The notes below the pieces were generated by a model that was given only the letters and a program-made list of their open reading frames with translations, made no database searches and was not told the DNA's origin. A stretch of DNA of 32,000 nt, from assembly GCF_000734015.1 (NCBI RefSeq), contig NZ_CP008796.1:1380001-1412000 (forward strand), given 5' to 3'. The stretch is from Thermodesulfobacterium commune DSM 2178. Lineage in GTDB: Bacteria > Desulfobacterota > Thermodesulfobacteria > Thermodesulfobacteriales > Thermodesulfobacteriaceae. The position numbers were made by a program, and so were the translations under genes. Below, one piece after another: positions 1-31,793 of the stretch (its first letter is position 1; every line of letters starts with the position of its first letter).

Positions 1-809
1 ACTCTGATGTGATGTCCATGAGAGATGCTGGCTGGATCCATTTCTTTGCTGAAAACGGTCAAGAAGCCGTTGACCTCATCTACCATGCCTATAAAGTCGC
101 CGAAAAAGCCCTGCTTCCTGTTGCCGTAAACATCGATGGATTCATCCTCTCCCATGTGGTCGAACCTGTCACCTTCTTAGACCAAAACTTACTCGATAAA
201 TACCTACCACCCCTTAAAATGAAATACAAACTTGACCCCAAAAACCCTATAACCATAGGTGCTATCGGTGTCCCTGAAATCTATACTGAAGCTAAAAAAG
301 CTCAGGATGAGGCCCTTAAAGCCAGCTATAAAATAATCCTTCAAGCCTGGAAAGATTTCGAAAAACTTACCGGAAGAAGGTATCTCCCTGTTGAAACCTA
401 TCAGATGGAAGATGCTGAGGTAGCTATCGTCATCATGGGTAGCCTTGCTGAAAACGCCATGAATGCCGTTGATATCCTCAGGGCTAAAGGTAAAAAAGTA
501 GGAGTGGTAAGAATCAGACTCTGGAGACCCTTCCCTACCAAAGACTTCCTCAAAGCCATCGGTAAAGTCAAAGCCCTTTGCGTGGTTGACAGGGCTGTCA
601 GTCATGCCTCAACCGGTGGACCCGTAGGCATAGAAGTACGCTCTGCCCTATATCAGTCCAACAAAAGACCTCGTGTCCTTAACCTGATTGCCGGTCTTAG
701 CGGTAGAGATGTTACCAAAGAAGACTTTGTTGAAATCTTCGAAAAAACCTTTGAAACCTTAAGTAAAAAACCAACCACACCATATGAAATCTACGGTGTA
801 AAGGAGTAA
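1..809 (+). CDS. porA: 2-oxoacid:ferredoxin oxidoreductase alpha subunit (pyruvate/2-ketoisovalerate type), C-terminal ~268 aa; the 5' end lies outside the window
   Basis: The frame is open back to base 3 (..SDVMSMRDAGW..), so the M at 9 in the ORF track is internal. RDAGWIHFFAENGQEAVD and the C-terminal domain resemble PorA/VorA. The TPP-binding beta subunit starts 4 nt downstream. Confidence 0.85.
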   Translation, partial: SDVMSMRDAGWIHFFAENGQEAVDLIYHAYKVAEKALLPVAVNIDGFILSHVVEPVTFLDQNLLDKYLPPLKMKYKLDPKNPITIGAIGVPEIYTEAKKAQDEALKASYKIILQAWKDFEKLTGRRYLPVETYQMEDAEVAIVIMGSLAENAMNAVDILRAKGKKVGVVRIRLWRPFPTKDFLKAIGKVKALCVVDRAVSHASTGGPVGIEVRSALYQSNKRPRVLNLIAGLSGRDVTKEDFVEIFEKTFETLSKKPTTPYEIYGVKE

Positions 810-813
810 GCCT

Positions 814-1785
814 ATGAGACCAGAACTCAAAAACTTTAAAGGTTTTACCTTAAAAAACTTACCTGAATATGAAGGCTTTGCTCAGGGCCATAGAGCCTGC
901 CAGGGTTGTGGCACCGTGCTTCCTCTAAGGCTCGCCCTAAAGGCTCTTGGTCCCAATACCATCGCTGTCACTGCAACAGGTTGCATGGAAATCGTCTCAA
1001 GCCCCTTCCCCTATACCTCCTGGAATGTACCCTGGATCCATGTTGCCTTCGAAAACTCCGCCACCGTTGCCTCAGGTATCGAGGCTGCCATCAAAGCTCT
1101 TAAACGTAAAGGCAAACTTAAATCCAAAGAAAAAATAAATGTGGTCGTGTTTGCAGGAGATGGAGCTACCTTTGACATAGGGCTTCAGTGGCTCTCAGGT
1201 GCCCTTGAAAGAGGTCATGACTTTATCTACATCTGCCTTGATAACGAGGCCTACATGAATACAGGGGTGCAAAGGTCTGGAGCTACCCCCTTCGGGGCAC
1301 ACACCACCACAAGCCCTGCAGGTAAAGTCGTCAAAGGTCAAACCACCTGGAAAAAAAACCTGATGGGTATCGTGGTAGCTCACAACATACCCTATGCCGC
1401 AACCGCAAACCCTGCCTTCCCTATCGACCTCATGAATAAAGTCAAAAAAGCAGCCTTAATAAACGGACCTGCTTTTATCCATGTCTATGCAACCTGCCCC
1501 ACCGGATGGGGGACCAAAAGCGAAGACAGCCTTCTTGTAGCTAAACTTGCCGTAGAAACAAGGGTCTTTCCTCTCTATGAAGTCATAGACGGAAAATACA
1601 TCATCAACCGTAAAGTCGATAAACCTAAACCTGTAGAAGAATATCTCAAGCTCCAAAGAAGATTCAGACACCTTACCCCTGAACAAATAGCCTACATCCA
1701 GGAGAGAGTAAACCAGGAATACGAAAAACTTCTTAAACTAGCTGAATGCTTCGGTGAACCCCAAACAGAACAAAAAGATGAGTAA
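814..1785 (+). CDS. porB: 2-oxoacid:ferredoxin oxidoreductase beta subunit (TPP- and Fe-S-binding)
   Basis: An AAGGAG SD lies at 800-805. The N-terminal GHRACQGCG Cys motif and the TPP motif GDGATFDIG...LDNEAYMNTG are present. The size (323 aa) fits PorB/VorB. Substrate specificity cannot be read from the sequence. Confidence 0.88.
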   Translation: MRPELKNFKGFTLKNLPEYEGFAQGHRACQGCGTVLPLRLALKALGPNTIAVTATGCMEIVSSPFPYTSWNVPWIHVAFENSATVASGIEAAIKALKRKGKLKSKEKINVVVFAGDGATFDIGLQWLSGALERGHDFIYICLDNEAYMNTGVQRSGATPFGAHTTTSPAGKVVKGQTTWKKNLMGIVVAHNIPYAATANPAFPIDLMNKVKKAALINGPAFIHVYATCPTGWGTKSEDSLLVAKLAVETRVFPLYEVIDGKYIINRKVDKPKPVEEYLKLQRRFRHLTPEQIAYIQERVNQEYEKLLKLAECFGEPQTEQKDE

Positions 1786-1788
1786 GGT

Positions 1789-2148
1789 ATGAGAATTAAC
1801 CTTTTAGACAAAGCAAAAAAACTTAAAAACTTAGGAGCTCGCTATATTACAACGGTTGCCTATCTAAACCCTGATACCGGTGACAAAGTAGTAGTAACAC
1901 ATCTTTTTGATTTAAACGGTAAACTTGAAGAACTAACCTATGAAGCAGAATTTTCGGAAACTTTAGAGAGTATAAAAGAAGTATATCCTGCGGTTGAATG
2001 GTCAGAACGAGAGATAATGGAACTTTATGGAATAGAATTTAGTGGTTACCCCGAAGAAGAAAAAAATCTTCTTTTATCTTCGGGGGGCCATCCCTTTCCT
2101 CTTTTAGAGGTAGAAAAACAAAAAGTCTCAAGAAAAAGACATGAATAG
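1789..2148 (+). CDS. Group-4 [NiFe]-hydrogenase small accessory subunit, NuoC/EchD/CooU-like (30 kDa-subunit fold, short form)
   Basis: EWSEREIMELYGIEFSGYPEEE matches the NuoC-family signature (E-x-E-x2-D/E-x2-G-I-x-F-x-G-H/Y-P). The ATG is 3 nt after the porB stop. The gene overlaps the large-subunit gene by 8 nt. Confidence 0.7.
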   Translation: MRINLLDKAKKLKNLGARYITTVAYLNPDTGDKVVVTHLFDLNGKLEELTYEAEFSETLESIKEVYPAVEWSEREIMELYGIEFSGYPEEEKNLLLSSGGHPFPLLEVEKQKVSRKRHE

Positions 2149-3238
2149 ATCCCAAAAGTTTGTCTTACCTATAGGACCTATTCATATAGCTTTAGAAGAA
2201 CCTATTCAGCTAAAGTTAGAAACTGAGGGTAATATAGTAAAAAACGTACAGCTTAAGATAGGATATGTCCATCGAGCTATAGAATTTCTTTTGGCTAATA
2301 AAGATTTTTATCAAGGAATTATTGTGGTTGAAAGGGTCTGTGGAATTTGCTCTCATTCCCATCCTACCTGTTTTGTTCAGGCTCTTGAGCAGATAGCAGG
2401 GATTGAAGTTCCATTAAGAGCAAGATATTTAAGAACTCTGATAGGTGAACTGGAAAGAATTCACTCCCATCTTCTAAACACTGCCATTGCTTGCGAAATT
2501 TTAGGATTTAAAACCTTGTTTGTAAGGTGTATGAATGCAAGAGAAAACATTAAAGACCTGATGGAAGGTATCACTGGACATAGAGGTAATTATGCCTTTA
2601 ATACCATAGGAGGGGTTAGAAAAGATTTACTTGAAGATGAAATCCATGAGGTGAAAAAATCTATAGACAGTCTTGAACCTGAGATTTTTCAACTAATAGA
2701 AACTGTTCTTAGCAATTCGACCTTAATTAGCAGGACTAAAGAAATTGGCGTTTTAACCTATCAAGATGCGATAGACCTTTCGGTAGTAGGTCCTGTAGCA
2801 AGGGCCTCAGGTGTAGACCTCGACCTAAGAAAAGATGTTGCCATGCCAGGTGCAGCTTACGAGTTCCTTGAATTTGAAAAAGTAATAGAGAAAGACGGAG
2901 ATGTGCTGAGTCGGGTTAAGGTAAGACTTCTTGAGATGATAGAAAGTTTTAAAATAATAAAACAAATCTTAAAAGACCTTCCTAAGGGACCGATTTTAAC
3001 CAAAAAGTTTGTACCTATTCCCAAAGGTATCGGGATAAGTAGATGGGAAGCTCCAAGAGGAGGCCTTATTTATTATTGTATAACTGATGGGACAGACATT
3101 CCCTATAGAGTAAAAATAAGGGCCCCAAGCTTTGTAAACATCTATGCTCTTAATCGAATCCTGATAAACCAAGATGTAGCTGATGTAACTATTATTTCTG
3201 GAAGTATAGATCCCTGTTTTTCTTGTATGCAAAGATAG
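2141..3238 (+). CDS. Group-4 membrane-bound [NiFe]-hydrogenase large (catalytic) subunit, EchE/CooH/HycE/NuoD-like
   Basis: Both Ni-Fe ligand motifs are intact: N-terminal RVCGICSHSH (RxCGxCxxxH) and C-terminal DPCFSCMQR (DPCxxCxxR). Both Cys in the C-terminal motif are encoded by TGT. At 365 aa it is the size of EchE/CooH. Confidence 0.92.
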   Translation: MNRSQKFVLPIGPIHIALEEPIQLKLETEGNIVKNVQLKIGYVHRAIEFLLANKDFYQGIIVVERVCGICSHSHPTCFVQALEQIAGIEVPLRARYLRTLIGELERIHSHLLNTAIACEILGFKTLFVRCMNARENIKDLMEGITGHRGNYAFNTIGGVRKDLLEDEIHEVKKSIDSLEPEIFQLIETVLSNSTLISRTKEIGVLTYQDAIDLSVVGPVARASGVDLDLRKDVAMPGAAYEFLEFEKVIEKDGDVLSRVKVRLLEMIESFKIIKQILKDLPKGPILTKKFVPIPKGIGISRWEAPRGGLIYYCITDGTDIPYRVKIRAPSFVNIYALNRILINQDVADVTIISGSIDPCFSCMQR

Positions 3239-3249
3239 AGGTGAAACAA

Positions 3250-3648
3250 GTGAGATTAAAAATAGACCCCAGTTTATGCAAAGGGTGCACTGCTTGTGAA
3301 AAAATATGTATGAAAGTACACAATTCTACTATGCCAAGGATTTTTGTGATAAAAAAAGGAGAAAAAGTAAAAATTTCTGCCTGCAATCAGTGTGGTCTTT
3401 GTGCTAAGATATGTTCTGTTGGAGCAATAACCAAAGAAGGAGAGGCTTTTATCATTAATCCGTCTTTATGTGTGGGATGTAAGCTTTGTTATTATATTTG
3501 TCCTTCTGGAGCCATAGAAATGGTCCCATCTTTTAACAAGTATAACCCGATCATCGCCCAGAAGTGTGACCTATGTAAAGATAAAGGGTTTAGTCCTTCT
3601 TGTGCCAAAGTTTGTAGAACCAAAGCCATTACTGTAGAGGAGAAGTGA
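3250..3648 (+). CDS. Polyferredoxin with four [4Fe-4S]-type Cys motifs (16 Cys), HycB/CooF-like electron-transfer subunit
   Basis: The motifs are CKGCTACEKIC, CNQCGLCAKIC, CVGCKLCYYICP and CDLC-x7-CAKVC. I prefer the GTG at 3250, which follows GAGGTGA (3238-3244). The ORF track's ATG at 3223 would overlap the large subunit by 16 nt, so the start is uncertain. Confidence 0.8.
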   Translation: MRLKIDPSLCKGCTACEKICMKVHNSTMPRIFVIKKGEKVKISACNQCGLCAKICSVGAITKEGEAFIINPSLCVGCKLCYYICPSGAIEMVPSFNKYNPIIAQKCDLCKDKGFSPSCAKVCRTKAITVEEK

Positions 3649-3650
3649 AA

Positions 3651-5414
3651 ATGTTTCTTGGTTTTAGTGTTGGAGTGCTGTTTTTAGGGGCTCTAATTTC
3701 TGCTTTGTTTTACAGGATAAATAGTCCAAAGTTTCATGGCAGTTTAGCCTTTCTTACCTCTGCTGTAGCCTTATACTTTTTAAACCTGACTTTTTTTGAA
3801 TTTATTAAAACTGGAGAATTTAGTTGGCATCTCCCCCTTTTTAGGTGGATAAGAGACTTCATTAACCTTGAACTGATTTTTAAAGCAAATGGGTTAAATC
3901 TATTTTTTGCTCTTTTTGGAGCATATGTTAGTGTAGGGATTAATCTTTATGCTATAAAATACATGACCCATGAAGAAGAAGGTTTTGGCAGATTTTATGC
4001 TTTTATTCAGTTATTTATAGGCTCCTATCTAGGGTTAACCCTTAGTGAAAATCTCTTTTGGTCTTATGTGTTTTTTGAACTTACAGGGTTATGTTCTTAT
4101 CAACTGATAGCCTTTTGGTATCAGTCTGACCTTTCGAGTTTTTCTGCTAAAAAGGCTTTCTTGATGACTCACATCGCTGGTTATGGGTTTCTGTTAGGAG
4201 CTCTTGTGTTTACCCTATCTCCTGACCCTAAGGTTTATCAAGATTTAATTTTGGCTGGGGTTTTGATAGCTGTGTTAGCCAAATCGGTTCAATGGCCTCT
4301 TTACACCTGGATACCATATGCGATGAACGCTCCTACTCCGGTAAGCGCCCTGCTTCATGCAGCCTGTTTGGTAAAATGCGGGGTGTATCTCTTGTTTAAG
4401 TTTTATCTTTTACTTGGTGGCTTTCCTGAATTCTGGAAAAACCTTCTGATTTATTTAGGGATGTTCTCTTCTCTTATGGGAGTTCTATTTGCCTTAAAAC
4501 AGGCTGACGTTAAAAAACTCTTAGCCTATCACACAGTTAGCCAGATAGGATATATGGTCTCAGGAATAGGGCTTGGAACCTCTCTTGGGTTAGCTTCTTC
4601 TCTCTTTCACACCTTAAATCATGCCCTTTTTAAAGGTCTCCTTTTTTTGGTTGCTGGAATCCTCCAGCAGGCAACCCATACCCGAGACCTTTCTCTGATG
4701 GGAGGGCTTGCCTCTAAACTACCAAAAACCACGGTTCTTTACCTGATAGGTGCAGCCTCTATCTCAGGAATACCAGGTTTTAACGGCTTTGTAAGTAAAT
4801 GGATGTTTTATCAGGCTGCGATAGAGGCTAACCATCCATTAGCTGCAGCTTTAGGACTTTTCATAAGTACTCTCACCACCCTTTCGTTTATCAAAGTGCT
4901 TGATACCGCATTTTTAGGTAAACTTGACGAAAAAAACAAACAGCTTTCTGAAAAACCTTTTTACCTTATGATTACAGGAGGAATCATCCTAGCTATTCCG
5001 TGTGTAGTGTTTGGTCTTTTCCCTCAAATAGCTATCACTTTTCTTATAAATCCAGCCTTATCTCTTTTAAACCTCCGAGAGGTTAACATCAGCTTTTATC
5101 AACTCCCTACCGTTTTAATAGGAGCTTTGTTTATTTTGTTCTTAGGCTTAGGGATTTTAATTTATTTTACCTGGCTTAAACCTAAGGAAATTATTAAAGA
5201 AACCGAGGTTTTTAAAGGAGGAGAGGACGAACCTGTTTTTAATCCTACTGCAGATGATTTTGTGGCTGACATAGAAAACCGTTTAGCAACCTTTTATAAA
5301 AAAGCCGATCCAGACCAATACCTCCTAAAAACTTGCAGTTTTATTGAAAAATTAATCATGAAAGTCTATACTACCGTCAAAAAGTTAGAACAGATATGGA
5401 GTAAACCATGTTGA
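3651..5414 (+). CDS. Antiporter-like membrane subunit, NuoL/MrpA/HyfB/EchA family
   Basis: The protein is polytopic. Family motifs LLAYHTVSQIGYM and HALFKGLLFLVAG are present. I prefer the ATG at 3651, preceded by GAGGAG at 3636-3641, over the GTG at 3645. Confidence 0.85.
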   Translation: MFLGFSVGVLFLGALISALFYRINSPKFHGSLAFLTSAVALYFLNLTFFEFIKTGEFSWHLPLFRWIRDFINLELIFKANGLNLFFALFGAYVSVGINLYAIKYMTHEEEGFGRFYAFIQLFIGSYLGLTLSENLFWSYVFFELTGLCSYQLIAFWYQSDLSSFSAKKAFLMTHIAGYGFLLGALVFTLSPDPKVYQDLILAGVLIAVLAKSVQWPLYTWIPYAMNAPTPVSALLHAACLVKCGVYLLFKFYLLLGGFPEFWKNLLIYLGMFSSLMGVLFALKQADVKKLLAYHTVSQIGYMVSGIGLGTSLGLASSLFHTLNHALFKGLLFLVAGILQQATHTRDLSLMGGLASKLPKTTVLYLIGAASISGIPGFNGFVSKWMFYQAAIEANHPLAAALGLFISTLTTLSFIKVLDTAFLGKLDEKNKQLSEKPFYLMITGGIILAIPCVVFGLFPQIAITFLINPALSLLNLREVNISFYQLPTVLIGALFILFLGLGILIYFTWLKPKEIIKETEVFKGGEDEPVFNPTADDFVADIENRLATFYKKADPDQYLLKTCSFIEKLIMKVYTTVKKLEQIWSKPC

Positions 5415-6511
5415 AGGCTTTAGCCCCCTTCTTAACCATAATCTATATGGCTATAACCTTGTTATGTGGGGTGTTTTACCTTAGAGATTTTAACAAAAAA
5501 TTGACGGTCTTACTCTGTCTTGTGGTTTTAACCTTTTCTAACCTCTTTTTACTCTGGGGAGAGACTTCTTATGGTCTATTTTTTGATGGGATTAGCGTAA
5601 TAGCTTTGCTAACGCTATTTTGGGTTCTTGGTTATAAAGAAGCTTTTAAAATCTTAGGGGTTGTAGAAACCTCTTATTTGTTTCTACTTATCTTAGGAAA
5701 GACTGTTTTTGCTCTTACCCCTGAAGGCATTGTTTTGTTGGTTATAGCTTTCTTTCTAAAACTTGCTGTTTTTCCACTTTTTCTCTGGCTACCGATAGTG
5801 GTAAAAAGTATAGATGCTATCACCGCTGGGTTTTTTATATGTATTTTTGAGATCGTAGATTTTGTGTTGTTATGGAGGACAGTGGAAAAGGCTTCTTGGT
5901 TCCCTCAATTTTTTGAAAGCTTAAGAGAATTTTCTCTATACATAGGAATTATAACTTTACTTTTGGGAGCTGGGCTTGCTCTTTGTGAAAAAAATTTAAA
6001 AAAACTTTTGGCCTACGCAACGATCGACGACACAGGGTATCTCTTGATAGGACTAAGCCTTTTTTCTCCGGTAAGCCTTTATGGAACTACCATTCTGTGG
6101 ATTAACCACCTAATAGCAAAATTAGGTCTGTTTTTCATAGCCTATAGGATAGAAAAGAATACTTCTGTAATATCCTTAGGAAAGGTAAAAGGACTTGCCA
6201 AAGACTATCCTGGTTTAGCCTTTTCTTTCTTGGTATTTGCCTTAACTTTGATAGGTGTACCTATTTTCCCCGGATTTTGGGGGAAACTCTTCCTTTATCA
6301 AGAGGTTTTTAAACTCTCTAAAGCTCTTTTTGGGCTTATGGTATTAGGAGGTTGTCTTACCTTAGTGTATTTTATAAGGGCTTACCATAGCCTGTTTTTA
6401 GGAGAAAAAGAGCCAGAAACCGTTCAACCTTTTTTACCTAAACTGGATTTGGTTTTAGTAATGCTTTTAAGTTTTACGATAGTTTTAGGTTGTTTAATAA
6501 TAGGTTTTTAA
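5408..6511 (+). CDS. Second, short antiporter-like membrane subunit (NuoN/NuoM/MrpD-like, 367 aa)
   Basis: The protein is polytopic. KKLLAYATIDDTGYLLIG corresponds to the LLAYSSI-x-H/Q-x-G motif of the Mrp/Nuo antiporter family. It is about 100 aa shorter than typical members. It overlaps the upstream gene by 7 nt. Confidence 0.7.
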   Translation: MLKALAPFLTIIYMAITLLCGVFYLRDFNKKLTVLLCLVVLTFSNLFLLWGETSYGLFFDGISVIALLTLFWVLGYKEAFKILGVVETSYLFLLILGKTVFALTPEGIVLLVIAFFLKLAVFPLFLWLPIVVKSIDAITAGFFICIFEIVDFVLLWRTVEKASWFPQFFESLREFSLYIGIITLLLGAGLALCEKNLKKLLAYATIDDTGYLLIGLSLFSPVSLYGTTILWINHLIAKLGLFFIAYRIEKNTSVISLGKVKGLAKDYPGLAFSFLVFALTLIGVPIFPGFWGKLFLYQEVFKLSKALFGLMVLGGCLTLVYFIRAYHSLFLGEKEPETVQPFLPKLDLVLVMLLSFTIVLGCLIIGF

Positions 6512-6525
6512 AAGGTGGTAAGGAT

Positions 6526-6984
6526 ATGTTTTTAGATGCTATAAAACAATTTCTAAAATACTCTCAAAAAAAATCTCTTTGGGTATTTCATGTAAACACT
6601 GGATCTTGTAACGGATGTGATATCGAAATTTTGGCCCTATTTTCTTCCAAATACGACGCCGAACGTTTTGGCATCAAACTGGTTGGAAGCCCTAAGCATG
6701 CAGACATTTTGTTAGTTACCGGACCTGTAACCACTAAATCCAGAGACCCTTTGTTAAGGGCTTATGACATGATGCCTAAACCTAAAGCTGTAGTTAGTGT
6801 AGGGGTGTGTTCTTTAAGTGGAGGGGTTTTTGCCAAAAGTTACAATGTCTTAGGGCCTGTAGATAACTTTATTCCAGTGCATGTTTATGTAGGAGGCTGT
6901 TCAGCCCATCCTAACATGATTTTAGAAGGCATTTTAAGAGCGGCACAAATCTTGTGCGAAGAGGAAGAACTATGGAGTTTCTAA
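6526..6984 (+). CDS. Group-4 [NiFe]-hydrogenase small subunit, NuoB/EchC/HycG/CooL-like (proximal [4Fe-4S])
   Basis: The four-Cys pattern is present as CNGCDIE, GVCSLSGG and GGCSAHP. The ATG at 6526 follows AAGGTGGTAAGGA. The extension to 6490 in the ORF track would overlap the upstream gene and adds no conserved sequence. Confidence 0.9.
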   Translation: MFLDAIKQFLKYSQKKSLWVFHVNTGSCNGCDIEILALFSSKYDAERFGIKLVGSPKHADILLVTGPVTTKSRDPLLRAYDMMPKPKAVVSVGVCSLSGGVFAKSYNVLGPVDNFIPVHVYVGGCSAHPNMILEGILRAAQILCEEEELWSF

Positions 6985-7901
6985 AAGACCTGTTTTTATA
7001 TCCTGGATTTTTATTTGGGTTTGTGTTAGGGGGGCTTTTAGAAGGGTTTAAAAGAAAACTTAAAGCCAGGATGCAGTTAAGAAAAGGTCCTCCTGTAACC
7101 CAACCTTTTTATGACCTGAGCAAATTGTTACTAAAAAATATAACCAAACCTTATACCATATCTTCGTTTACCTACCTTTTAATACCTTTTGTGCCTACCG
7201 TAGGGCTTTTGGTAGGATTACTTATCATGCCTTATCCTTTTTACCAAGAAAAAAGCTCCTTTTCTTTTGACCTTATCCTTATTTTTTACCTTACAGAACT
7301 ACCGCTTCTTTCCCAGATTATCTTTGGCTATTTCAGTAATTCTCCTTATGGAATGGTAGGTGCAGCAAGAGCAGGACAGATGTTTTTTTATTACAACGGA
7401 GTTTTCATCATGGTTATCACCACGCTATGTCTGCTTGAAGGACCTCCCTATTCTTTTTGCTTAAAAAGTATAGCTGAAGCCTGGGATCCTTTAGATGTCT
7501 TGATAAAAATTTTAACCATACCCTTTTTTGTATTTTCTGTTTTAGCTAAACTAAAACTAAATCCCTTTTCCATACCTGATGCCGAGGCTGAAATCTTAGA
7601 AGGACCTTTAACTGAGGCTTCTGGCGTTGCTTTAGCTCTTTTCAAGCTTAACTACTTACTTGAACTGGCAATCTTTGGTTCTCTCTTTGCCTTTTTTTAT
7701 CTGCCTGTGTTAAAAACCTCTCCTCCAGTAGGATTGATTTTAATTTTTTTTGGGGCTTTTTTTCTCTTCTTTATCTTTGCTTTAGTTGAAAACATAACTG
7801 CCAGACTAAGACTTTCGCAATTTTCATCTCTTTACCTAAAGTTTTTTATACCATTGGCTACGCTGATTTTAGTAATAACCTGGGTTTTTAAAAACTGGTA
7901 A
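6972..7901 (+). CDS. Membrane subunit, NuoH/HycD/EchB/CooK-like
   Basis: The N-terminal FKRKLKARMQLRKGPPVTQPFYDLSKLL matches the NuoH/HycD signature (RK-x2-A-x-x-Q-x-R-x-GP...QP-x-x-D). About 8 hydrophobic segments are present. The ATG at 6972 follows GAGGAAG. Confidence 0.82.
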   Translation: MEFLKDLFLYPGFLFGFVLGGLLEGFKRKLKARMQLRKGPPVTQPFYDLSKLLLKNITKPYTISSFTYLLIPFVPTVGLLVGLLIMPYPFYQEKSSFSFDLILIFYLTELPLLSQIIFGYFSNSPYGMVGAARAGQMFFYYNGVFIMVITTLCLLEGPPYSFCLKSIAEAWDPLDVLIKILTIPFFVFSVLAKLKLNPFSIPDAEAEILEGPLTEASGVALALFKLNYLLELAIFGSLFAFFYLPVLKTSPPVGLILIFFGAFFLFFIFALVENITARLRLSQFSSLYLKFFIPLATLILVITWVFKNW

Positions 7902-7916
7902 GGAAGGGGACTACCT

Positions 7917-8393
7917 ATGCTAAAGTTAGCAGGGTGGCTTTTAACCAACTTGTTTAAAAAACCTTTAACCATTGAATTTAAAGGGAAAAGCCTTAAAGCA
8001 GTAAGAGGTACTTATCGTGGTTATCCTACCCATAGAGGAGAAAGATGTGCAGCCTGCAGGCTTTGTATCTATGTATGTCCCTCTGATGCCATAAGGATAG
8101 AAGGAAGCCTTTTTATCCTCAACAAATGTAAGTGCACTGCTTGTAAAGACTGTGCTGATGCCTGTCCTTTTGGTGCCATGCAGTTTATCCCTCGACTTAT
8201 AGGTACAGCTATCTCTAAAAACGAGTACATGGAAATCACTGAGATAAAACTGGTAAAATGTGAAAACTGCGGCGAACCAATGCCTAAACCGGAACTTTTG
8301 TTAGGAAGACTATTAGGAAAACCTTCTAAAACCATACCTCCCTACCTTAGGCTTTGCCCTAAATGTAGAAGGCAATTCTTTAAACATACCTAA
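7917..8393 (+). CDS. 2x[4Fe-4S] ferredoxin subunit, NuoI/HycF/EchF/CooX-like, with an extra C-terminal CxxC-x28-CxxC tail
   Basis: It has CAACRLCIYVCP and CTACKDCADACP, plus C-terminal CENC...CPKC (nt 8259-8366). The SD is GGAAGGGGA at 7902-7910. Confidence 0.85.
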   Translation: MLKLAGWLLTNLFKKPLTIEFKGKSLKAVRGTYRGYPTHRGERCAACRLCIYVCPSDAIRIEGSLFILNKCKCTACKDCADACPFGAMQFIPRLIGTAISKNEYMEITEIKLVKCENCGEPMPKPELLLGRLLGKPSKTIPPYLRLCPKCRRQFFKHT

Positions 8394-8401
8394 ACTATTG
8401 C

Positions 8402-8441
8402 TTGGCAAGTTTTTATGTTTGCTTTATTATGTATTTATAAT
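8402..8441 (+). promoter_or_regulatory. Candidate sigma70-type promoter for the dsrMK-like pair
   Basis: TTGGCA (8402-8407), a 17 nt spacer, then TATTAT (8425-8430). A second TATAAT at 8436-8441 has no good -35. The element sits in the 99-nt AT-rich gap after the last hydrogenase gene. Confidence 0.4.
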
Positions 8442-8492
8442 TTACCTTGGTAGTATTTATAGAAAAGAAAATTCTATACTAAGGAGGGATAT

Positions 8493-9356
8493 ATGGGGAT
8501 GGTAGTTTTTACCTATGTAGCTTTTTTGGTTTGTGTAGTGGGAATAGCTTATAGATTTTATCTGTTTTATAAACTTCCCATAAACATCAGATGGGAGGTT
8601 TATCCAGTACCTCATGAACCAGGAGAAAAGAAAAAATACGGAGGTTCTTACTTAGAGGAGTTTGCTTGGTATGAAAGGAAACTTGAAAAAGACCATGTTG
8701 GAGAATGGGTTGAACCTTTAAAGGAGATTCTGTGGCTTGAGAGGGTTAAAACCTATAATCGTTATGGGCTGTGGATTTGGTCTTTTTGTCTGCACTGGGG
8801 TTTATGGTTGATGTTTTTGTTTGTGATTTTAATGCTAATAAACACAAAGATTTCTATACCTTTAGGGTTGATAAAAACTGTAGGAATTTTAGGATATGGG
8901 ATGGGAAGCTTAGGTGTTTTAGGACTGTTGGTCAAACGTACTATCCATCCAACCCTTAAACTTTACACCAGTCCGATAGATCGGGTTAACCTTTTACTTT
9001 TGTTGGCTTTATTTGTTACAGGCTTTTTGATGGTTGTTTCAGACGATGGGTTAAAACACGCCTTTTTTTACTTTAATGCTATTCTCTTTTTTGCTCCACA
9101 AGAAACTAAATTTGAAGGTATAGCTTTCTGGCATTTCTTTATATTTAATATATTTATACTATATCTTCCTTTTTCCAAATTTTTTCATGGTCCAGCCAAG
9201 TATCTTACTTACCACAAAATTTTATGGGATGACATGCCCCAGTCTAAAGGAAGTAAGATAGAAAAACTTATAGAAAGACAACTGGGCTACCAGGTAGGAT
9301 GGTCTGGCCCTCATGTAAAACCTGAAAAAACCTGGCTTGAAAACGCACAAAACTAA
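8493..9356 (+). CDS. Integral-membrane NarI-family b-type cytochrome, DsrM/HmeC-like
   Basis: The protein is polytopic. RWEVYPVPHE near the N-terminus and conserved His in the helices (CLHWGLW, WHFFIF, FFHGP) fit the DsrM/NarI family. A strong SD (AAGGAGGG) is present. The DsrK-like partner is directly downstream. Confidence 0.7.
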   Translation: MGMVVFTYVAFLVCVVGIAYRFYLFYKLPINIRWEVYPVPHEPGEKKKYGGSYLEEFAWYERKLEKDHVGEWVEPLKEILWLERVKTYNRYGLWIWSFCLHWGLWLMFLFVILMLINTKISIPLGLIKTVGILGYGMGSLGVLGLLVKRTIHPTLKLYTSPIDRVNLLLLLALFVTGFLMVVSDDGLKHAFFYFNAILFFAPQETKFEGIAFWHFFIFNIFILYLPFSKFFHGPAKYLTYHKILWDDMPQSKGSKIEKLIERQLGYQVGWSGPHVKPEKTWLENAQN

Positions 9357-9384
9357 ATCGATAAAACCAAAAAAGGAGGTTAAC

Positions 9385-11034
9385 ATGAGCCTTTGCAACT
9401 TTATAAGACAAGAGTTAGAAGAGAAAAACGAAGAAAGTAAGGTATGTTTTAAAGAACTTTCTAAACCTGGGAAGGAACCTCTGTTCAAATTAGAAGAAAA
9501 AGAAATGTTACAAATTCCTGGCATAGAAGAAGTTAAAGATCAAACCCCAGAAAACTGGTATCAAACCTATAATCTAAGTTTAGACGGCTACAGCATGTTT
9601 CCTCAACCAGATCCTATCTCTCAAGAGGAAAAAGCAGAAATAGTAAAGAGGTTTTTACACGGCCTTAAAAAGTTGCTTAGCCCAAAGTCTAACTGGACGT
9701 TTATAAGACCTCTTAAGCTTTCTTTAGAAAATTGTGTAAGGTGTAACACCTGTGCTGATGCTTGTCATCTATACTTAGCAAGTGGCCGTAAAGAGGTCTA
9801 CCGTCCTAACTTCAGGTCAGAAATATTAAGAAAGATCTACGAAAAACATTTTACTTTAACCGGCAAGCTGAATGCCTTGTTAGGAGAAGAAATAGACATT
9901 ACTTATGATCTCATAAGAAGGCTTTTTGAATTAGCTTATAGGTGTACTCTTTGTAGAAGGTGTGTTCTTTATTGCCCTATAGGAGTAGACAATGGGCTCA
10001 TAGCAAGAGAGCTTAGGAAACTTTTTAGTCAAGAATTAGGGTGGGCTCCTCCTGAGGTTCATCAAAAGGGAACAAGGCTTCATCTAAAGGCTGGTTCTTC
10101 AACTGGGATGAACCCTCAAGGTATTAAAGATACTATATCCTTTTTGGAAGAGGAAATAGCAGAAAAAACCGGCAAAAAAATCAAAATTCCTGTAGATAAA
10201 AAAGGGGCAGAGTATCTTTTTATACACAATGCTGGGGAGTACATTTCCTGGCCAGACCACATGGAGGCCTTTTTTATCTTATTTGATGCCGCAGGTATTA
10301 ACTATACCATAAGCAGTGAACCCTTGGGGTATGATGGAGTTAACTACGGTGCCTGGTATGACGATGTGGAACTGGCAAGAATTGCGGTAAATCATCTAAA
10401 GATAGCACATTCTTTAGGGGTAAAAAAGATCCTGGTTGGTGAATGTGGCCATGCACATAAGGTTTTCTGCGTAATACTGGATCGATTACTTCCTGCAAGT
10501 TCGCCTTTAGCTGAAATAAAAAGAGAAAGCTGCCTTCCTTTAGTTTGGGAAATAGTTAAAAGTGGAAAACTTAAACTTGACCCTTCTCGCAACGACTTTT
10601 ACTTTACTCTACATGACTCCTGCAACATAGTAAGACTTATGGGAATTGTAAAGCCTCAGAGAGAGGTTTTAAACAGGATAGTTCCTCCAGGACGGTTTAG
10701 AGAGATGAACCCCAATGGGGTTAAAAACTATTGCTGTGGAGGAGGAAGTGGGTTTGCTATCATGGGAAGTTTAAACTTTCCAACCTTTCGCAAAAAAGTA
10801 GGCATCAAAGTCAAACTTTGCCAGATAATGGAAACCTTTCAAGATGTCCTTAAAGAAGATAAAATAAAACTGGTAGTAGCAACCTGCTCTAACTGCAAGG
10901 GAACCATAAGGGAGATGGAGCATACTTATCACCTATTTGAAAAGTATAAAATAACCCATTGCGGACTGGTAGACCTGGTAGTAAATGCCATGGTAGACAT
11001 ACCCCCATTTTTAAATTTTGAAGAAATGTTGTAA
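9385..11034 (+). CDS. Cytoplasmic Fe-S / CCG-domain thiol:disulfide oxidoreductase subunit, DsrK/HmeD/HdrD-like
   Basis: It has CVRCNTCADACH and CTLCRRCVLYCP ferredoxin motifs after a ~110-aa N-terminal extension, as in DsrK. The C-terminal CCG domain shows NYCCGGGSG...CSNCKG. The ATG at 9385 follows AAGGAGG, and I reject the start at 9337 in the ORF track. Confidence 0.8.
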   Translation: MSLCNFIRQELEEKNEESKVCFKELSKPGKEPLFKLEEKEMLQIPGIEEVKDQTPENWYQTYNLSLDGYSMFPQPDPISQEEKAEIVKRFLHGLKKLLSPKSNWTFIRPLKLSLENCVRCNTCADACHLYLASGRKEVYRPNFRSEILRKIYEKHFTLTGKLNALLGEEIDITYDLIRRLFELAYRCTLCRRCVLYCPIGVDNGLIARELRKLFSQELGWAPPEVHQKGTRLHLKAGSSTGMNPQGIKDTISFLEEEIAEKTGKKIKIPVDKKGAEYLFIHNAGEYISWPDHMEAFFILFDAAGINYTISSEPLGYDGVNYGAWYDDVELARIAVNHLKIAHSLGVKKILVGECGHAHKVFCVILDRLLPASSPLAEIKRESCLPLVWEIVKSGKLKLDPSRNDFYFTLHDSCNIVRLMGIVKPQREVLNRIVPPGRFREMNPNGVKNYCCGGGSGFAIMGSLNFPTFRKKVGIKVKLCQIMETFQDVLKEDKIKLVVATCSNCKGTIREMEHTYHLFEKYKITHCGLVDLVVNAMVDIPPFLNFEEML

Positions 11035-11045
11035 AATCTTATAAT
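11018..11045 (+). promoter_or_regulatory. Candidate sigma70-type promoter for the MCP gene
   Basis: TTGAAG (11018-11023), a 16 nt spacer, then a perfect TATAAT (11040-11045). It straddles the stop codon of the upstream gene. The SD GGGGGA lies before the ATG at 11081. Confidence 0.4.
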
Positions 11046-11080
11046 GTAAGACTATTTAAAAATTTCCGAAGGGGGATTAG

Positions 11081-12304
11081 ATGGAAGAAAAAACTAAAAT
11101 CAAAACTAAACTTTGGAACTTAACAATTTTTCACATTTTTATCTTGTTTTTGCTTAACTTGAGTTTTTTATACCTATCTTGGAAAGTACAACCTGGTATC
11201 AAAGAAAAAGGTCTCAAAGATTTTTTAACCTACGGAACGATTATTTTATCCCTTTTTTCTTTTATAGCAGTTCTGGTTGAGCTAGTCTGGAGCTGGAGGG
11301 TTATAGACAACATAGGGAAAAGTGCCCAAGAACTCAAAAGGGTGTTGGCTACCCTTCATAAAGGAGATTTTACGGTTGACATAAAGGTATACGGTAACGA
11401 TGAGCTTGGGGTAGCCTCTCAGCTTCTACATGAGATCATACTTAAAAGAAGAAAATTTTTTTCTCAGGCTAAGGATATTTCAGAAAATCTCTTTAGTTAT
11501 TCTACAACCATATCTAAGGTCTCAACAGAGCTAACAGAAAACCTAAGGTTTTTAACCGAAAAATCAGCTCAGATGACTATGTTTGCCAACCATATTTCTG
11601 AAGCCCTGTCTAACATCGTTCAAAATCTATCCCAAATACGAGATTTTAGCAGTGAAACCTCTGATAGGTCTAAAGAGGGGATGGAGTTTTCCTCTTATCT
11701 CTCAAAAGAAATAAAAGGGCTCAAAGACATCTTTGAGAGGTTGGGAGTGGTGGTTAACGACCTAAGAAAAAGTTCAGACCATATAGGTTCTATCGTGATG
11801 TTGATAAAAGACATCGCTGAACAGACCAACCTGTTAGCCCTTAATGCAACTATCGAGGCAGCAAGGGCTGGAGAACATGGTAAAGGTTTTGCTGTTGTGG
11901 CTGAAGAAGTAAGAAAATTAGCTGATAATACCACCAAAGCTACAGATAAAATCGAAGAGGTTATAAAAGAAATACAAGCCAAAGTCTTTTCAGTAGAAGA
12001 TTCCCTAAAAGGCTCTATAGAAAAGGTTAATAAAGGAGCAGAAATGGCTCAACAAACTGAAAACATGTTAAAAGACATCTATGAAAAGACCCAAGAATTA
12101 AAGGAAAAGATAAACTTTATTGCTTCCTCAAGTGAAGACATCTCTGTGAACATCGAAAACATCTCTAAAGACCTCAATGAAATAGCAGAAAGAGTAAAGG
12201 CCCTTTATACAGCTCAAGAAAACACAAGCCTGGTAGCCTCTCAAGTGCTAAAAGAAAGTGAAACCTTAAAAGAAGCTGTGGGGCTACATAAAGCTAAAAA
12301 TTAG
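11081..12304 (+). CDS. Methyl-accepting chemotaxis protein (two TM helices, HAMP domain, no periplasmic sensor domain)
   Basis: The highly conserved MCP hairpin core [34 protein letters not shown] is present. Two N-terminal hydrophobic helices are separated by only ~15 residues and are followed by a HAMP-like segment. Confidence 0.9.
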
Positions 12305-12306
12305 GT

Positions 12307-12990
12307 TTACTTCACAGCCTGATATAAGGTTACTATACCAAAGGTTAAAGGACTATAGGTTACCTCTGAAAAACCTGAGGTTAAGAGCATTTCTCTTATA
12401 GCCTCAGGAGACGGGAAAGCCTTTATAGAATCGGCTAAATACATATAAGCCTCTTTGTCTCCGGTTAAAGCCCCTCCTAAAAGGGGCATATAATAACTCA
12501 GGTAAAAATCATAAAATCTTTGCACTAAAAAATTTTTAGGCCAAGAAAATTCAAGGATAATTAGCTTTCCTCCTGGTTTTAAAACCCTAAAAAACTCTTT
12601 TATAGCTTTTTCCTTGTTAGGTAGATTCCTTAACCCAAAGGCTATGCTAATCCCCCCAAAATGGTCGTTCTTGAAAGGTAGTTCCTCTGCATCTCCACAA
12701 ACAGGATAAATGTAGGTATCTTTTATTCTGGAGCTACCAAAGGCAAGCATCTCAAAGCTAAAGTCTAAGGCAAAGGTTTTAGCTAAATTACTCTTTCGAT
12801 AGACCTCTAAGGTTAGGGTAAAAGGTCCACAACAAAGGTCAAGCAGAGGAGGAGAGGCTTCAGCTAACAATAAAGCAACTTTACGTCTCCATAATCTGTC
12901 TTGACCTAAACTTCCTATAAGGTTTACCAGGTCATACCTTCGAACTATCCGGTCAAACTTGTTTTTAACAAAGTTTTTTTCAACCTTCAT
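12307..12990 (-). CDS. ubiE: Demethylmenaquinone / ubiquinone-family C-methyltransferase (UbiE/MenG)
   Basis: The N-terminal VKNKFDRIVRRYDLVNLIGSLGQDRLWRR is the UbiE/MenG signature region. The SAM-binding motif LLDLCCGP and the RVLKPGGKLIILEF motif are present. The gene lies at the end of an mqn gene run. Confidence 0.85.
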   Translation of the reverse strand: MKVEKNFVKNKFDRIVRRYDLVNLIGSLGQDRLWRRKVALLLAEASPPLLDLCCGPFTLTLEVYRKSNLAKTFALDFSFEMLAFGSSRIKDTYIYPVCGDAEELPFKNDHFGGISIAFGLRNLPNKEKAIKEFFRVLKPGGKLIILEFSWPKNFLVQRFYDFYLSYYMPLLGGALTGDKEAYMYLADSIKAFPSPEAIREMLLTSGFSEVTYSPLTFGIVTLYQAVK

Positions 12991-12999
12991 TTTTCACCC

Positions 13000-13830
13000 T
13001 TATCCTATGGGGAAAAAGTTGAGCTCAGGCATATAAGATATAAGTTTTTTCTTGTATAAAATCTCGCAAAAATATAGATATGCCCTTTGTTTTAACCCTG
13101 AAAAATCATACTCTAAATGGGTTAGATAGTTGTATACAAAATCCTTAGGGAGATGAAGATGGGAATGGGTTACCACCTCTTTTAAGTTCGAAAAAGCTTT
13201 AGCCCTGGCAGAATACAGATTTAAACAAAAATCAGCCAGTGCTTGTTTAAAGGATATAAACTCCTTTTTTAGAATAAACAAAGCAAAAACAAACGGAAAA
13301 TGCGTATATTTTAACCACAGTTCTGCAAGGTCAGTGATATCATACCTCTCATCTTTCTTATGCTGAAGGATTAAAGCCTCATCTCCTATAGCTAAATAGC
13401 CCTTTAATTCTTCTCTCTCTTGGTCTGAAAGAGCTCCCCAATTTTTAGAAAGTTCTACATACTTAGGTTTTACCCCTATAAACTCTTCAAGTAAAACCCT
13501 TAAAAGCCAAAAAGAACTTTCGGTCTCTGGGGTTATCCCTACGGGTTGCCCGTCAAGGTCTTGAAGGTCCTCTTTATGATAAAGCACTACACTTTTTACC
13601 TCTCCTACAGCACTTATCGATAGGTCTGGTAAAAGGTAAAATTCTTGAGGATTTTTAGCATAGACTATACTTGAACTTAAGCTTGCACACAAAACATTCT
13701 GTCTAAGAAGTTGATTAAGCTTCTTAGGAACCTCTAACATAAGTTCTATTCTTTGATTTTCCTTAGGAAGGTAAAAAAGTAAGGGGAGTGTGTTTATGTA
13801 AAGAGGAATCCCTATTTTTAGTTTATCCAT
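13000..13830 (-). CDS. mqnA: Chorismate dehydratase MqnA (futalosine pathway)
   Basis: The sequence is VitK2-biosynthesis-family-like: KIGIPLYINTLPLL, ISAVGEVKSVVLY and FPFVFALF. It lacks the SPCPND motif of MqnD. I prefer the start at ATG 13830, which overlaps the upstream gene as ATGGATAA. The 21-codon extension to 13893 in the ORF track lies inside the upstream gene. Confidence 0.75.
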   Translation of the reverse strand: MDKLKIGIPLYINTLPLLFYLPKENQRIELMLEVPKKLNQLLRQNVLCASLSSSIVYAKNPQEFYLLPDLSISAVGEVKSVVLYHKEDLQDLDGQPVGITPETESSFWLLRVLLEEFIGVKPKYVELSKNWGALSDQEREELKGYLAIGDEALILQHKKDERYDITDLAELWLKYTHFPFVFALFILKKEFISFKQALADFCLNLYSARAKAFSNLKEVVTHSHLHLPKDFVYNYLTHLEYDFSGLKQRAYLYFCEILYKKKLISYMPELNFFPIG

Positions 13831-15049
13831 AAATCCTATACTTAACCTCCTTGTTAGAGTTGATAAGAGATACCATCGTCTCCTGAGGGTCATCTATCAG
13901 GTAATCTAAAACCTCAACCACAAGAAGGTTAGGTAAGTATCCAGGGGCAATTGCGCCAAGGTTTTCATATCCCAGAATTTTGGCTCCGGTTAAAGTAGCC
14001 ATCTGAAGAAGGATTTCAGGAGATACTTCAGGAAAGGCTGAATAAAGGGTCTTCAACTCTTCCCAGATAGATAATGAGGTGTTACTAGCTAAACTATCTG
14101 TTCCTATACCTATCTCAAGACCTGACTTTAACAATAAAGGCAAGTTAGGAAGGCCTACCCCTGTAAAAAGATTACTTCTTGGACAAACACAAACCTTAGG
14201 TTTATAGGTTTTAAGAACCTCTAAGTCTTCTTCGTCTAATTGGACAACATGGACTAACAAAGTTTTTTCATCAAGAAGGTTTAAACTGGCTAAGTATTTT
14301 ACCGGGCTTATCCCAGGAGGAGAAAAGCTTTCGTTCCATTGGTTTCTTTCCTCTAACAAGTGTTTTACTGGACCATCGCCAGTCTTTAAAAACTCTACCT
14401 CTTCTTTAAACTCTGCACAATGGATACAAAAAACCTGATTTCTTTTTCTGGTGTAGGCTTTTATTGCCTGAAGAAGTAAAGGAGAAACAGTATAAGGGGC
14501 GTGAGCTGAATAGGTTAACTTAAACCTTGAGTCCAAATCTTGCTTATCAAGAGGTTGCAGCTTAACCCCTCCTTTAAAATTTATAATTTCTCGAAACACA
14601 TAACCATATAAAGGGCTTCCTTTAAGAAGGTCTAAAGTAAGCCCTGAATTTGTGACCTCTCCAACAAGCCCTATCCCCTCTTTCCATAACTCTGAAATCC
14701 CCAATTTTGCGCCTTCTTTTAACTCTATCAGAGTAGTTTCTTCCTTTAGTTTAATTACCTGTTTTACCCAGGTTATAAAATTTTCTGAAGGTTTGATCCT
14801 AAACCTAAAACTGGAGAGCTCAAGATGGGTATGAAGATTGGTTAAACAAGGAAGGATCACCGCTTCTTCAAAATCTATCAGCTTGGCTCCTACCGTTTCT
14901 TTAGACAGGGTTGAAAACTCCCCAACCCTAACAATCCTCCCTTCTCTAATCTCTACGGCCCCGTCTAAAATAGGGGGCAAGGCTACAGGAACCACCCATT
15001 TAGCCCGAAGTAAAAAATGATGGTAAGGAAGGACTTGAATTTCTTTCAT
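13823..15049 (-). CDS. Amidohydrolase-superfamily deaminase, probable aminodeoxyfutalosine deaminase (MTA/SAH-deaminase-like)
   Basis: The metal-binding motif LHTHLELS is present, along with later His/Asp motifs (YSAHAPYT, IHCAE, GTDSLASN). It sits between mqnA and an MqnE/C-family radical SAM gene. The specific substrate is inferred from context only. Confidence 0.6.
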   Translation of the reverse strand: MKEIQVLPYHHFLLRAKWVVPVALPPILDGAVEIREGRIVRVGEFSTLSKETVGAKLIDFEEAVILPCLTNLHTHLELSSFRFRIKPSENFITWVKQVIKLKEETTLIELKEGAKLGISELWKEGIGLVGEVTNSGLTLDLLKGSPLYGYVFREIINFKGGVKLQPLDKQDLDSRFKLTYSAHAPYTVSPLLLQAIKAYTRKRNQVFCIHCAEFKEEVEFLKTGDGPVKHLLEERNQWNESFSPPGISPVKYLASLNLLDEKTLLVHVVQLDEEDLEVLKTYKPKVCVCPRSNLFTGVGLPNLPLLLKSGLEIGIGTDSLASNTSLSIWEELKTLYSAFPEVSPEILLQMATLTGAKILGYENLGAIAPGYLPNLLVVEVLDYLIDDPQETMVSLINSNKEVKYRIYG

Positions 15050-15051
15050 GC

Positions 15052-16113: not shown

Positions 16114-16625
16114 CTTTCTATCCCTATTCTATCCCTAATCCCTTGATCATAGTAATGTTTAATCTTTTTCATTTCAGTCACCAGGTGGGCAAATTCAATA
16201 AGACTTCTTGGAGCATCTCTCCCGGTAATGACTATTTCCACCTCTTCTGGCTTATCCCTCAAGACCTGCAAAATCTCTTTTTCTTCAACCAAACCCCAGT
16301 TAAGAGCAAACGTAAACTCATCTAAAACAATTATATTATACTCTTTAGAAAAAACCAGTCTTTTAGCTTCTTCCCAGCCTTTTTGGATAATTTCTTTTAG
16401 CTCAGAAGTTACTTCTGACACAAAACCTTTCCCCCCAAACTGCTGATAATACAAATTATCGAAAGTCTTGAGAATCTTTACTTCAGAGGAGGTTCCATCC
16501 TTAAAAAACTGAAGAAAAGCTACCTTTAATCCAGCTCCTAAAGCTCTTATACTTAAACCCACAGCCGCGGTGGTCTTCCCTTTTCCATCTCCTGTATAGA
16601 CCTGCACATACCCTCGGTCAATCAT
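16110..16625 (-). CDS. cobO: Cob(I)yrinic acid a,c-diamide / cob(I)alamin adenosyltransferase, CobO/BtuR type
   Basis: The P-loop-like segment YTGDGKGKTTAAVGLSIRALGAG is present, along with ILDEFTFAL, VITGRDAP and VTEMKKIKH, in a ~170 aa protein. It overlaps the downstream radical SAM gene by 4 nt. Confidence 0.85.
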   Translation of the reverse strand: MIDRGYVQVYTGDGKGKTTAAVGLSIRALGAGLKVAFLQFFKDGTSSEVKILKTFDNLYYQQFGGKGFVSEVTSELKEIIQKGWEEAKRLVFSKEYNIIVLDEFTFALNWGLVEEKEILQVLRDKPEEVEIVITGRDAPRSLIEFAHLVTEMKKIKHYYDQGIRDRIGIER

Positions 16626-31508: not shown

Positions 31509-31520
31509 GTTAGGGAGAGC

Positions 31521-31767: not shown

Positions 31768-31793
31768 CTAAAAACCTCGAGGGGGGTATATCT

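Follow-up and report, generated by a model that had tools for sequence, protein, structure and literature searches.

A probable por-ech2 operon fusion in Thermodesulfobacterium: genes for a pyruvate:ferredoxin oxidoreductase directly precede those of an Ech2-type [NiFe]-hydrogenase

Overview

The window analysed here is a 32,000-nt stretch of the genome of Thermodesulfobacterium commune DSM 2178, a hot-spring sulfate reducer (contig NZ_CP008796.1, forward-strand positions 1,380,001 to 1,412,000). Its list of open reading frames (ORFs) begins with ten consecutive + strand genes (window 1-8393): the 3' part of porA and all of porB, encoding subunits of a 2-oxoacid (pyruvate):ferredoxin oxidoreductase (POR), followed by eight genes of a [NiFe]-hydrogenase. 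The eight hydrogenase subunits are orthologues, in identical order, of the Ech2 enzyme of Thermoanaerobacter kivui, and only 3 nt separate the porB stop codon from the start of the first hydrogenase gene, ech2D. The locus is quite probably an operon fusion specific to Thermodesulfobacterium, in which porGDAB is co-transcribed with an orthologue of the eight-subunit T. kivui Ech2 hydrogenase (group 4g). The chemistry leading from POR through ferredoxin to an energy-converting hydrogenase is textbook material; the por-ech2 gene arrangement is new, and is a modest but useful addition. No description of a por-ech2 fusion was found in the searchable literature, in which the phrase 'pyruvate hydrogenlyase' also returned no papers.

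Gene content and junctions

The ten genes, the junction between the two blocks and the intergenic region that follows them are listed below by window coordinates. Percentages are tblastn identities to the corresponding T. kivui subunits, and all ten assignments agree with both Pfam and NCBIfam.

1..809, + strand: porA, 3' two-thirds, alpha subunit of a four-subunit 2-oxoacid (pyruvate):ferredoxin oxidoreductase (Pfam POR_N, PFOR_II, Transketolase_C)
814..1785, + strand: porB, thiamine pyrophosphate-binding beta subunit (NCBIfam PorB equivalog NF008819)
1783..1791, + strand: por-to-hydrogenase junction consisting of TAA, 3 nt and ATG (the sequence reads GAG TAA ggt ATG)
1789..2148, + strand: ech2D, NuoC-like subunit of the 30-kDa family (Pfam Complex1_30kDa; 45% to Ech2D)
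2141..3238, + strand: ech2E, [NiFe] large subunit, keeping the two CxxC motifs for Ni binding and lacking a C-terminal extension (66% to Ech2E)
3250..3648, + strand: hycB2, polyferredoxin with 16 Cys in four motifs, for four [4Fe-4S] clusters (61% to HycB2, colinear)
3651..5414, + strand: ech2A1, NuoL/MrpA-like antiporter-type membrane subunit (Pfam Proton_antipo_N, Proton_antipo_M; 55% to Ech2A1)
5408..6511, + strand: ech2A2, short NuoN/M-like antiporter-type membrane subunit (Pfam Proton_antipo_M; 42% to Ech2A2)
6526..6984, + strand: ech2C, NuoB-like small subunit carrying the four proximal-cluster Cys (Pfam Oxidored_q6; 64% to Ech2C)
6954..7901, + strand: ech2B, NuoH-like membrane subunit, starting at GTG 6954 or ATG 6972 (Pfam NADHdh; 51% to Ech2B)
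7917..8393, + strand: ech2F, NuoI-like subunit (Pfam Fer4 families; 47% to Ech2F)
8394..8492, + strand: AT-rich intergenic region of 99 nt with a promoter-like site and a ribosome-binding site, the likely end of the por-ech2 unit

The gaps between successive genes are +4, +3, -8, +11, +2, -7, +14, -13 and +15 nt, and the tightly packed ten-gene layout described in the first-pass annotation is borne out by the ORF list with its range of -13 to +15 nt. For four genes the start could be placed at either of two codons that lie 6-36 nt apart (3223/3250, 3645/3651, 6490/6526 and 6954/6972). At the por-to-hydrogenase junction itself, the porB stop occupies 1783-1785 and the ech2D ATG is at 1789.

The first-pass annotation also held that this spacing leaves no room for a terminator or promoter. 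A consensus scan, which is weak and not functional evidence, leaves the + strand free of promoter-like sites from 220 to 2931 and shows nothing resembling a terminator at the porB/ech2D junction. The statement is nevertheless too strong, as a promoter could lie inside porB. At the far end of the unit, the same scan places a promoter-like TTGGCA-17-TATTAT site in the 99-nt region, and a strong AAGGAGGG ribosome-binding site precedes the ATG at 8493. Because this gap carries both signals while those upstream are 15 nt or less, the por-ech2 unit most likely ends at 8393. A search against Rfam found no RNA element within window 1-12,500.

Identity of the hydrogenase

The first reading of this locus as a genuine group-4 [NiFe]-hydrogenase is confirmed by its predicted proteins. 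Ech2E contains the RVCGICSHSH motif and the C-terminal DPCFSCMQR motif, both invariant across the alignment of its clade, the small subunit keeps its four Cys residues, and the 16 Cys of the polyferredoxin HycB2 are arranged as three CxxCxxCxxxC motifs plus one CxxC...CxxxC. In a protein search, the window's large subunit is 100% identical to a T. commune protein; its relatives comprise four close sequences (87-66%) and then T. kivui Ech2E (66%), with everything else at 49% or below. Among solved structures, Ech2E matches HycE and MbhL best (245 bits each), and no Ech2-type structure is present in the copy of the PDB that was searched. The PDB matches of HycB2 are HycB4/HycB3 of the hydrogen-dependent CO2 reductase (HDCR) and E. 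coli HycB (7z0s_B, E 6e-17).

The eight genes follow the T. kivui order D-E-HycB2-A1-A2-C-B-F (locus L002; TKV_c19750-c19680), described as the ech2D-E-hycB2-A1-A2-C-B-F cluster in 2014 (PMC4320612). Both enzymes have the two Ni-binding CxxC motifs, a large subunit that ends in ...CxxCxQR without a cleavable extension, a four-cluster HycB-type subunit and two antiporter-like subunits. Judged by its sequence, the hydrogenase is an Ech2-type energy-converting [NiFe] enzyme, a known and characterised kind whose established partner is soluble ferredoxin. The earlier remark that no characterised system has this gene order is overturned, since T. kivui ech2 matches the hydrogenase genes exactly in order and by orthology (PMC4320612, PMC9356269). 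The placement of the window enzyme in group 4g is taken from a 2026 survey, in which the Ech2 type is classed in group 4g and not 4e, a HydDB group 4g subclade shares the T. kivui Ech2 organisation and is putatively ferredoxin-coupled, and Thermodesulfobacterium species carry the Cys-type group 4g counterparts of the selenocysteine enzymes of Thermodesulfobium (PMC13582414).

The T. kivui enzyme was purified in 2022 via a His-tag on Ech2C and contains exactly eight subunits, including HycB2, without POR (PMC9356269). It catalyses ferredoxin-dependent H2 evolution as well as H2-dependent ferredoxin reduction, and in liposomes it builds a proton gradient with ferredoxin that is reduced by separately added pyruvate:ferredoxin oxidoreductase (PFOR) and pyruvate; in ion-translocation controls without ferredoxin the signal is absent (PMC9356269). 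In T. kivui, loss of ech2 by deletion hampers growth with pyruvate and with CO, while growth with sugars or with H2 + CO2 is not impaired (PMC10986591). Ferredoxin-dependent H2 evolution and H+ translocation are demonstrated for the T. kivui enzyme only, and by orthology the T. commune enzyme would be expected to do the same. The large subunit thus falls in a subgroup whose known partner is soluble ferredoxin, which departs in part from the direct POR partnership that had been suggested for it.

Three other assignments were considered and rejected, namely the six-subunit Ech of group 4e, an Mbh/Mrp-linked enzyme of group 4d and formate hydrogenlyase (FHL) of group 4a. Each misfits in gene order and subunit set, and the orthology to Ech2 is far closer.

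The por genes

The window starts inside porA, which is read as an ORF from 1/3 to 809, and the region upstream was deduced from the near-identical contigs L102 and L110 and from Thermodesulfobacterium sp. strain TA1. All three contain a full porG-porD-porA-porB set, including the porG and porD genes that the first-pass annotation proposed to look for upstream. PorA is the best NCBIfam match of the porA product. PorB passes the NF008819 equivalog model with 409.5 bits (cutoff 405) and scores 360 bits with the VorB-type model NF008818, below its cutoff of 405. PorG scores 222.7 where its equivalog cutoff is 225, the gamma and delta subunits are above the pyruvate/ketoisovalerate subfamily cutoffs, and the best-matching NCBIfam models are named as 'pyruvate synthase' subunits. 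The lengths of PorB, PorD and PorG are ordinary.

Further upstream in TA1 come genes for an ADP-forming acetate-CoA ligase and a DRTGG protein, 10 nt ahead of porG, and genes for a lactate permease and a FAD-linked oxidase lie upstream on the opposite strand. In a contig that is 99.3% identical to the window, the same DRTGG gene overlaps porG. The substrates recorded for T. commune, T. thermophilum and T. hveragerdense include H2, pyruvate and lactate (PMC5651148).

Window 657, inside porA, is the starting point of at least six independent assemblies, among them the NCBI draft of the type strain (JQLF01000017) and several Logan runs. Two contigs read through this position and carry 11 substitutions relative to the window, packed into 607-656, and the segment 607-657 looks like the edge of a repeat. 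Because this boundary inside porA is repeat-like, it suggests that a second por copy or operon with a common 5' region exists.

Conservation of the por-ech2 linkage

The linkage of por to the hydrogenase had been put forward as something to look for in relatives, and it is conserved across the genus. All of the Thermodesulfobacterium genomes and contigs that were seen to extend far enough have the 3-4 nt porB/ech2D junction; they are those of T. commune, T. thermophilum, T. hveragerdense and strain TA1, together with several metagenome and Logan contigs. The junction sequence across species is TAAGGTATG, TAATGTATG or TAAAGGTATG. Among 18 contigs read for the exact PorB, ech2 follows directly in all ten of the places shown. 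The Ech2 subunits of these por-linked species have diverged to 72-94% amino-acid identity, and since the 3-4 nt junction recurs across species and contigs, the arrangement is not due to chance.

Outside the genus the upstream partner changes. The next relatives, three metagenome contigs (L007-L009) whose large subunits are 74-75% identical, carry a cluster for a tungsten aldehyde:ferredoxin oxidoreductase (AOR) upstream: genes for AOR, a tungsten-cofactor radical-SAM maturase (TIGR04317, 383 bits, cutoff 380), ThiS and ThiF end 22-40 nt before ech2D (L007 5757-9628; L008; L009). In T. kivui and a related Firmicute contig, the ech2 cluster is free-standing. The same is true of an Ech2-type cluster on a 250-kb metagenome contig (L101 5264-6364; JGI 3300047584), where upstream por and aor genes are absent; its large subunit has an in-frame TGA within the first Ni motif (RVCGI*S), in keeping with the CxxU (selenocysteine) type of group 4g that was published in 2026. 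The por linkage appears confined to Thermodesulfobacterium within the Ech2 clade, and the idea that it is a property of this type of hydrogenase fails, since elsewhere in the clade the upstream genes are a tungsten AOR cluster or nothing of the kind.

Several searches define the scope of these results. A scan of a genome collection by large-subunit alignment listed matches in two Thermodesulfobacterium species and 78 more distant group-4 loci (44-47% identity), and among the matches listed no homologue of PorA or of PorB lies within 10 kb of any of these 78. The scan was saturated by the generic CGICSHSH pattern and missed T. commune, TA1 and T. kivui, and is thus not a census. Because a clade-specific metagenome scan gave only five loci, the Ech2 clade is rare in that metagenome set, and the sampling is thin but consistent. 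The protein search with the NuoC-like subunit returned only three close relatives, owing to word-index sensitivity, and the search with the small subunit did not discriminate the clade but led to the selenocysteine-type locus L101.

Proposed mechanism and its rivals

With an operon fusion of porGDAB and ech2 as the favoured explanation, low-potential electrons from POR would pass through PorD to a ferredoxin-type carrier, presumably free ferredoxin, and enter the hydrogenase via HycB2 and Ech2F. The cluster in Ech2C would relay them to the Ni-Fe site in Ech2E, where protons would be reduced to H2, and the energy set free would let Ech2A1, Ech2A2 and Ech2B translocate H+. The H2 may be released when growth is fermentative or syntrophic, or be taken up again to reduce sulfate, and the reaction would be reversible. 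The unit appears to sit within a lactate/pyruvate-to-acetate locus. The fusion would give stoichiometric co-expression of the producer of reduced ferredoxin (POR) with its sink, and does not prove a fixed complex.

A number of points weigh against this explanation. The G+C content at third codon positions (GC3) lies at 0.44-0.45 for porA/porB and at 0.23-0.33 for the ech2 genes, with the step exactly at the junction, and genes in the vicinity have values of 0.32-0.35. The por genes are thus GC3 outliers through codon bias, different origin or both, and because of this step the por and ech2 halves would differ in history or expression level. Specificity of POR for pyruvate is likely at the level of annotation, with PorB barely over its cutoff, and the full-length PorA of TA1 scores 468, below the equivalog cutoff of 550. 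Co-transcription of por and ech2 is read from gene spacing and conservation. The window holds no free ferredoxin gene by which the electron carrier might be identified. Finally, in the cell the unit might run the other way, using H2 to drive the synthesis of pyruvate.

The alternative raised by the first-pass annotation is a hard-wired 'pyruvate hydrogenlyase', in which POR docks stably on HycB2/Ech2F and electrons move from PorD cluster-to-cluster without a free ferredoxin pool. HycB-type polyferredoxins do serve as physical wires in the solved structures of FHL (7z0s_B), T. kivui HDCR (7qv7) and a bacterial AOR (8c0z_C), and some precedent comes from Thermococcus kodakarensis, in which 2-oxoglutarate oxidoreductase and the membrane-bound MBS reciprocally co-purify (PMC12016516). 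The lack of a ferredoxin gene in the window would also suit direct transfer, as would a junction spaced at the level of translational coupling and conserved despite the 72-94% identity of Ech2 between species. The polyferredoxin had been taken as the mark of such a partnership, but the same HycB2 belongs to the T. kivui complex, which purifies without POR and was assayed with soluble ferredoxin, and HycB2 is present in partner-less T. kivui, selenocysteine-type and AOR-linked clusters alike, so that it is not specific to a partner. Alignments of HycB2 and Ech2F are colinear across por-linked, AOR-linked and unlinked clusters, the Cys pairs in the Ech2F tail are kept in all lineages, and no insertion or extra domain is seen in the Thermodesulfobacterium versions relative to the AOR-linked and unlinked ones; the Por subunits, as noted, are of ordinary length. 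The linkage is found in one genus only, its sister lineages having AOR or nothing, and in none of the 78 distant loci listed. Taken together, these observations make hard-wiring unlikely. Its most explicit form is just as doubtful: a stable, membrane-bound POR-Ech2 supercomplex that passes electrons from PorD directly to HycB2 and pumps protons without soluble ferredoxin, with an analogous 'aldehyde hydrogenlyase' in the AOR-linked lineage. If true, it would make the Ech2 module a general plug-in acceptor for ferredoxin-type oxidoreductases.

Two further explanations were weighed. One runs the pathway mainly in reverse and for anabolism, with Ech2 reducing ferredoxin from H2 at the expense of the proton-motive force and POR acting as a pyruvate synthase (acetyl-CoA + CO2 to pyruvate). 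Such a role has been proposed for the Ech/Ehb hydrogenases of methanogens. It would fit the 'pyruvate synthase' names of the best NCBIfam models and the recurrent assembly break in porA, which hints at a second por copy for the other direction. T. kivui Ech2 also performs H2-dependent ferredoxin reduction (PMC9356269), and Thermodesulfobacterium species carrying the operon grow on H2 (PMC5651148). However, the same species use pyruvate and lactate (PMC5651148), the flanking genes are catabolic (ADP-forming acetate-CoA ligase directly upstream, lactate permease and FAD-linked oxidase nearby), and the T. kivui deletion phenotype is seen on pyruvate and CO, not on H2 + CO2 (PMC10986591). A mainly anabolic role is accordingly rated as rather unlikely, although the catabolic and anabolic directions are not mutually exclusive. 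The other explanation treats the adjacency as incidental, with por and ech2 transcribed separately from a promoter inside porB and sharing only a ferredoxin pool. The sharp GC3 step and differing codon usage would favour it, as would the evident mobility of the Ech2 module between phyla (PMC13582414), but the junction is kept wherever a Thermodesulfobacterium genome or contig reaches it, and the consensus scan found neither a promoter-like nor a terminator-like site nearby. Moreover, an independent lineage has the Ech2 module 22-40 nt behind the cluster of another ferredoxin-reducing enzyme, which argues for selection on the linkage. Incidental adjacency is hence very improbable.

Comparison with known systems

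The closest counterpart, T. kivui Ech2, differs in its surroundings. The T. kivui cluster is preceded by a 349-nt gap of its own, lies downstream of the gene cluster for acetyl-CoA synthase/carbon monoxide dehydrogenase (ACS/CODH) and is not fused to por, whereas T. commune ech2D begins 3 nt after porB and a DsrMK-like pair follows the cluster.

Resemblance to E. coli FHL (Hyc, group 4a) and to the CODH-CooF-Coo system (group 4c) lies in the encoding of a low-potential dehydrogenase together with a group-4 hydrogenase that bears a HycB/CooF-type polyferredoxin. In those systems the dehydrogenase is physically bound via HycB or CooF, an arrangement against which the behaviour of the T. kivui orthologue speaks in the present case. 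The T. commune large subunit is also a separate protein of 365 aa, while HycE is a NuoC-NuoD fusion, and the partner enzyme POR has its own ferredoxin-like delta subunit, unlike the partners in FHL and Coo.

The pathway of Pyrococcus and Thermococcus from POR through ferredoxin to the membrane-bound hydrogenase (MBH; group 4d, Mrp-linked) has the same logic of pyruvate oxidation, reduced ferredoxin and ion-translocating H2 evolution. The archaeal genes are at separate loci, however, and MBH is a 14-subunit, Mrp-containing enzyme with a different gene order; for the relatives at 44-47% identity with an MBH-kind order, no por genes were found nearby among the matches listed. The six-subunit Ech of Methanosarcina barkeri (group 4e) is likewise ferredoxin-coupled and proton-translocating and has the core of large, small, NuoC-, NuoI-, NuoH- and NuoL-like subunits. 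With its eight subunits, the T. commune enzyme adds to this core a HycB-type polyferredoxin and a second antiporter-like subunit, and the identity between Ech2E of T. kivui and EchE of M. barkeri is only 37% (PMC4320612).

Neighbouring genes

Two genes directly follow the por-ech2 unit:

8493-9356, + strand: DsrM-like (NarI-family) membrane protein (Pfam Nitrate_red_gam)
9385-11034, + strand: DsrK-like CCG Fe-S protein (Pfam CCG/Fer4_8; NCBIfam DsrK NF045796, 362 bits, below the cutoff of 400)

This DsrMK-like pair is kept downstream of ech2 in Thermodesulfobacterium only. It may be paralogous to the DsrMK module, or may serve lactate oxidation as an acceptor linked to menaquinone. Adjoining it are four probable genes of the futalosine pathway for menaquinone (window 12307-16113, - strand), which encode a UbiE/MenG methyltransferase, a VitK2_biosynth (MqnA-like) protein, an amidohydrolase and an MqnC/CofH-like radical SAM protein; a corrinoid adenosyltransferase gene is next (16110-16625).

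Genes for methyl-accepting chemotaxis proteins are located 3' of the Ech2 module both in the window (11081-12304, + strand) and in the AOR-linked contig L007 (16429-17610). Orthology of the two was rejected, as they have only generic signalling-domain similarity (33%), and their co-occurrence downstream of Ech2 in both lineages may be coincidence. In TA1 (L005 19146-19775), two Transposase_mut fragments lie between the genes for the DsrK-like protein and the chemotaxis receptor; they are absent from the window.

Elsewhere in the window, a single 773-aa ORF (18181-20502, - strand) combines a pyridoxal phosphate-dependent PALP (cysteine-synthase-like) domain with a class-I cysteinyl-tRNA synthetase, and by its predicted domains is an unusual fusion joining cysteine synthesis and tRNA charging. 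A tRNA gene (30921-30994, + strand) and a cobalamin riboswitch (62 bits; 31509-31778, + strand) are found at the far end and are unrelated to por-ech2.

Significance

The distribution of upstream partners depicts the Ech2 module as portable, placed behind different ferredoxin-reducing operons: POR in Thermodesulfobacterium and a tungsten AOR in another thermophile lineage. The two arrangements offer a natural setting in which to ask whether low-potential oxidoreductases bind directly to the HycB-type subunits of group-4 hydrogenases or always communicate via free ferredoxin. The por-ech2 locus also offers a concrete genetic basis on which a deep-branching sulfate reducer could produce or cycle H2 from lactate and pyruvate.

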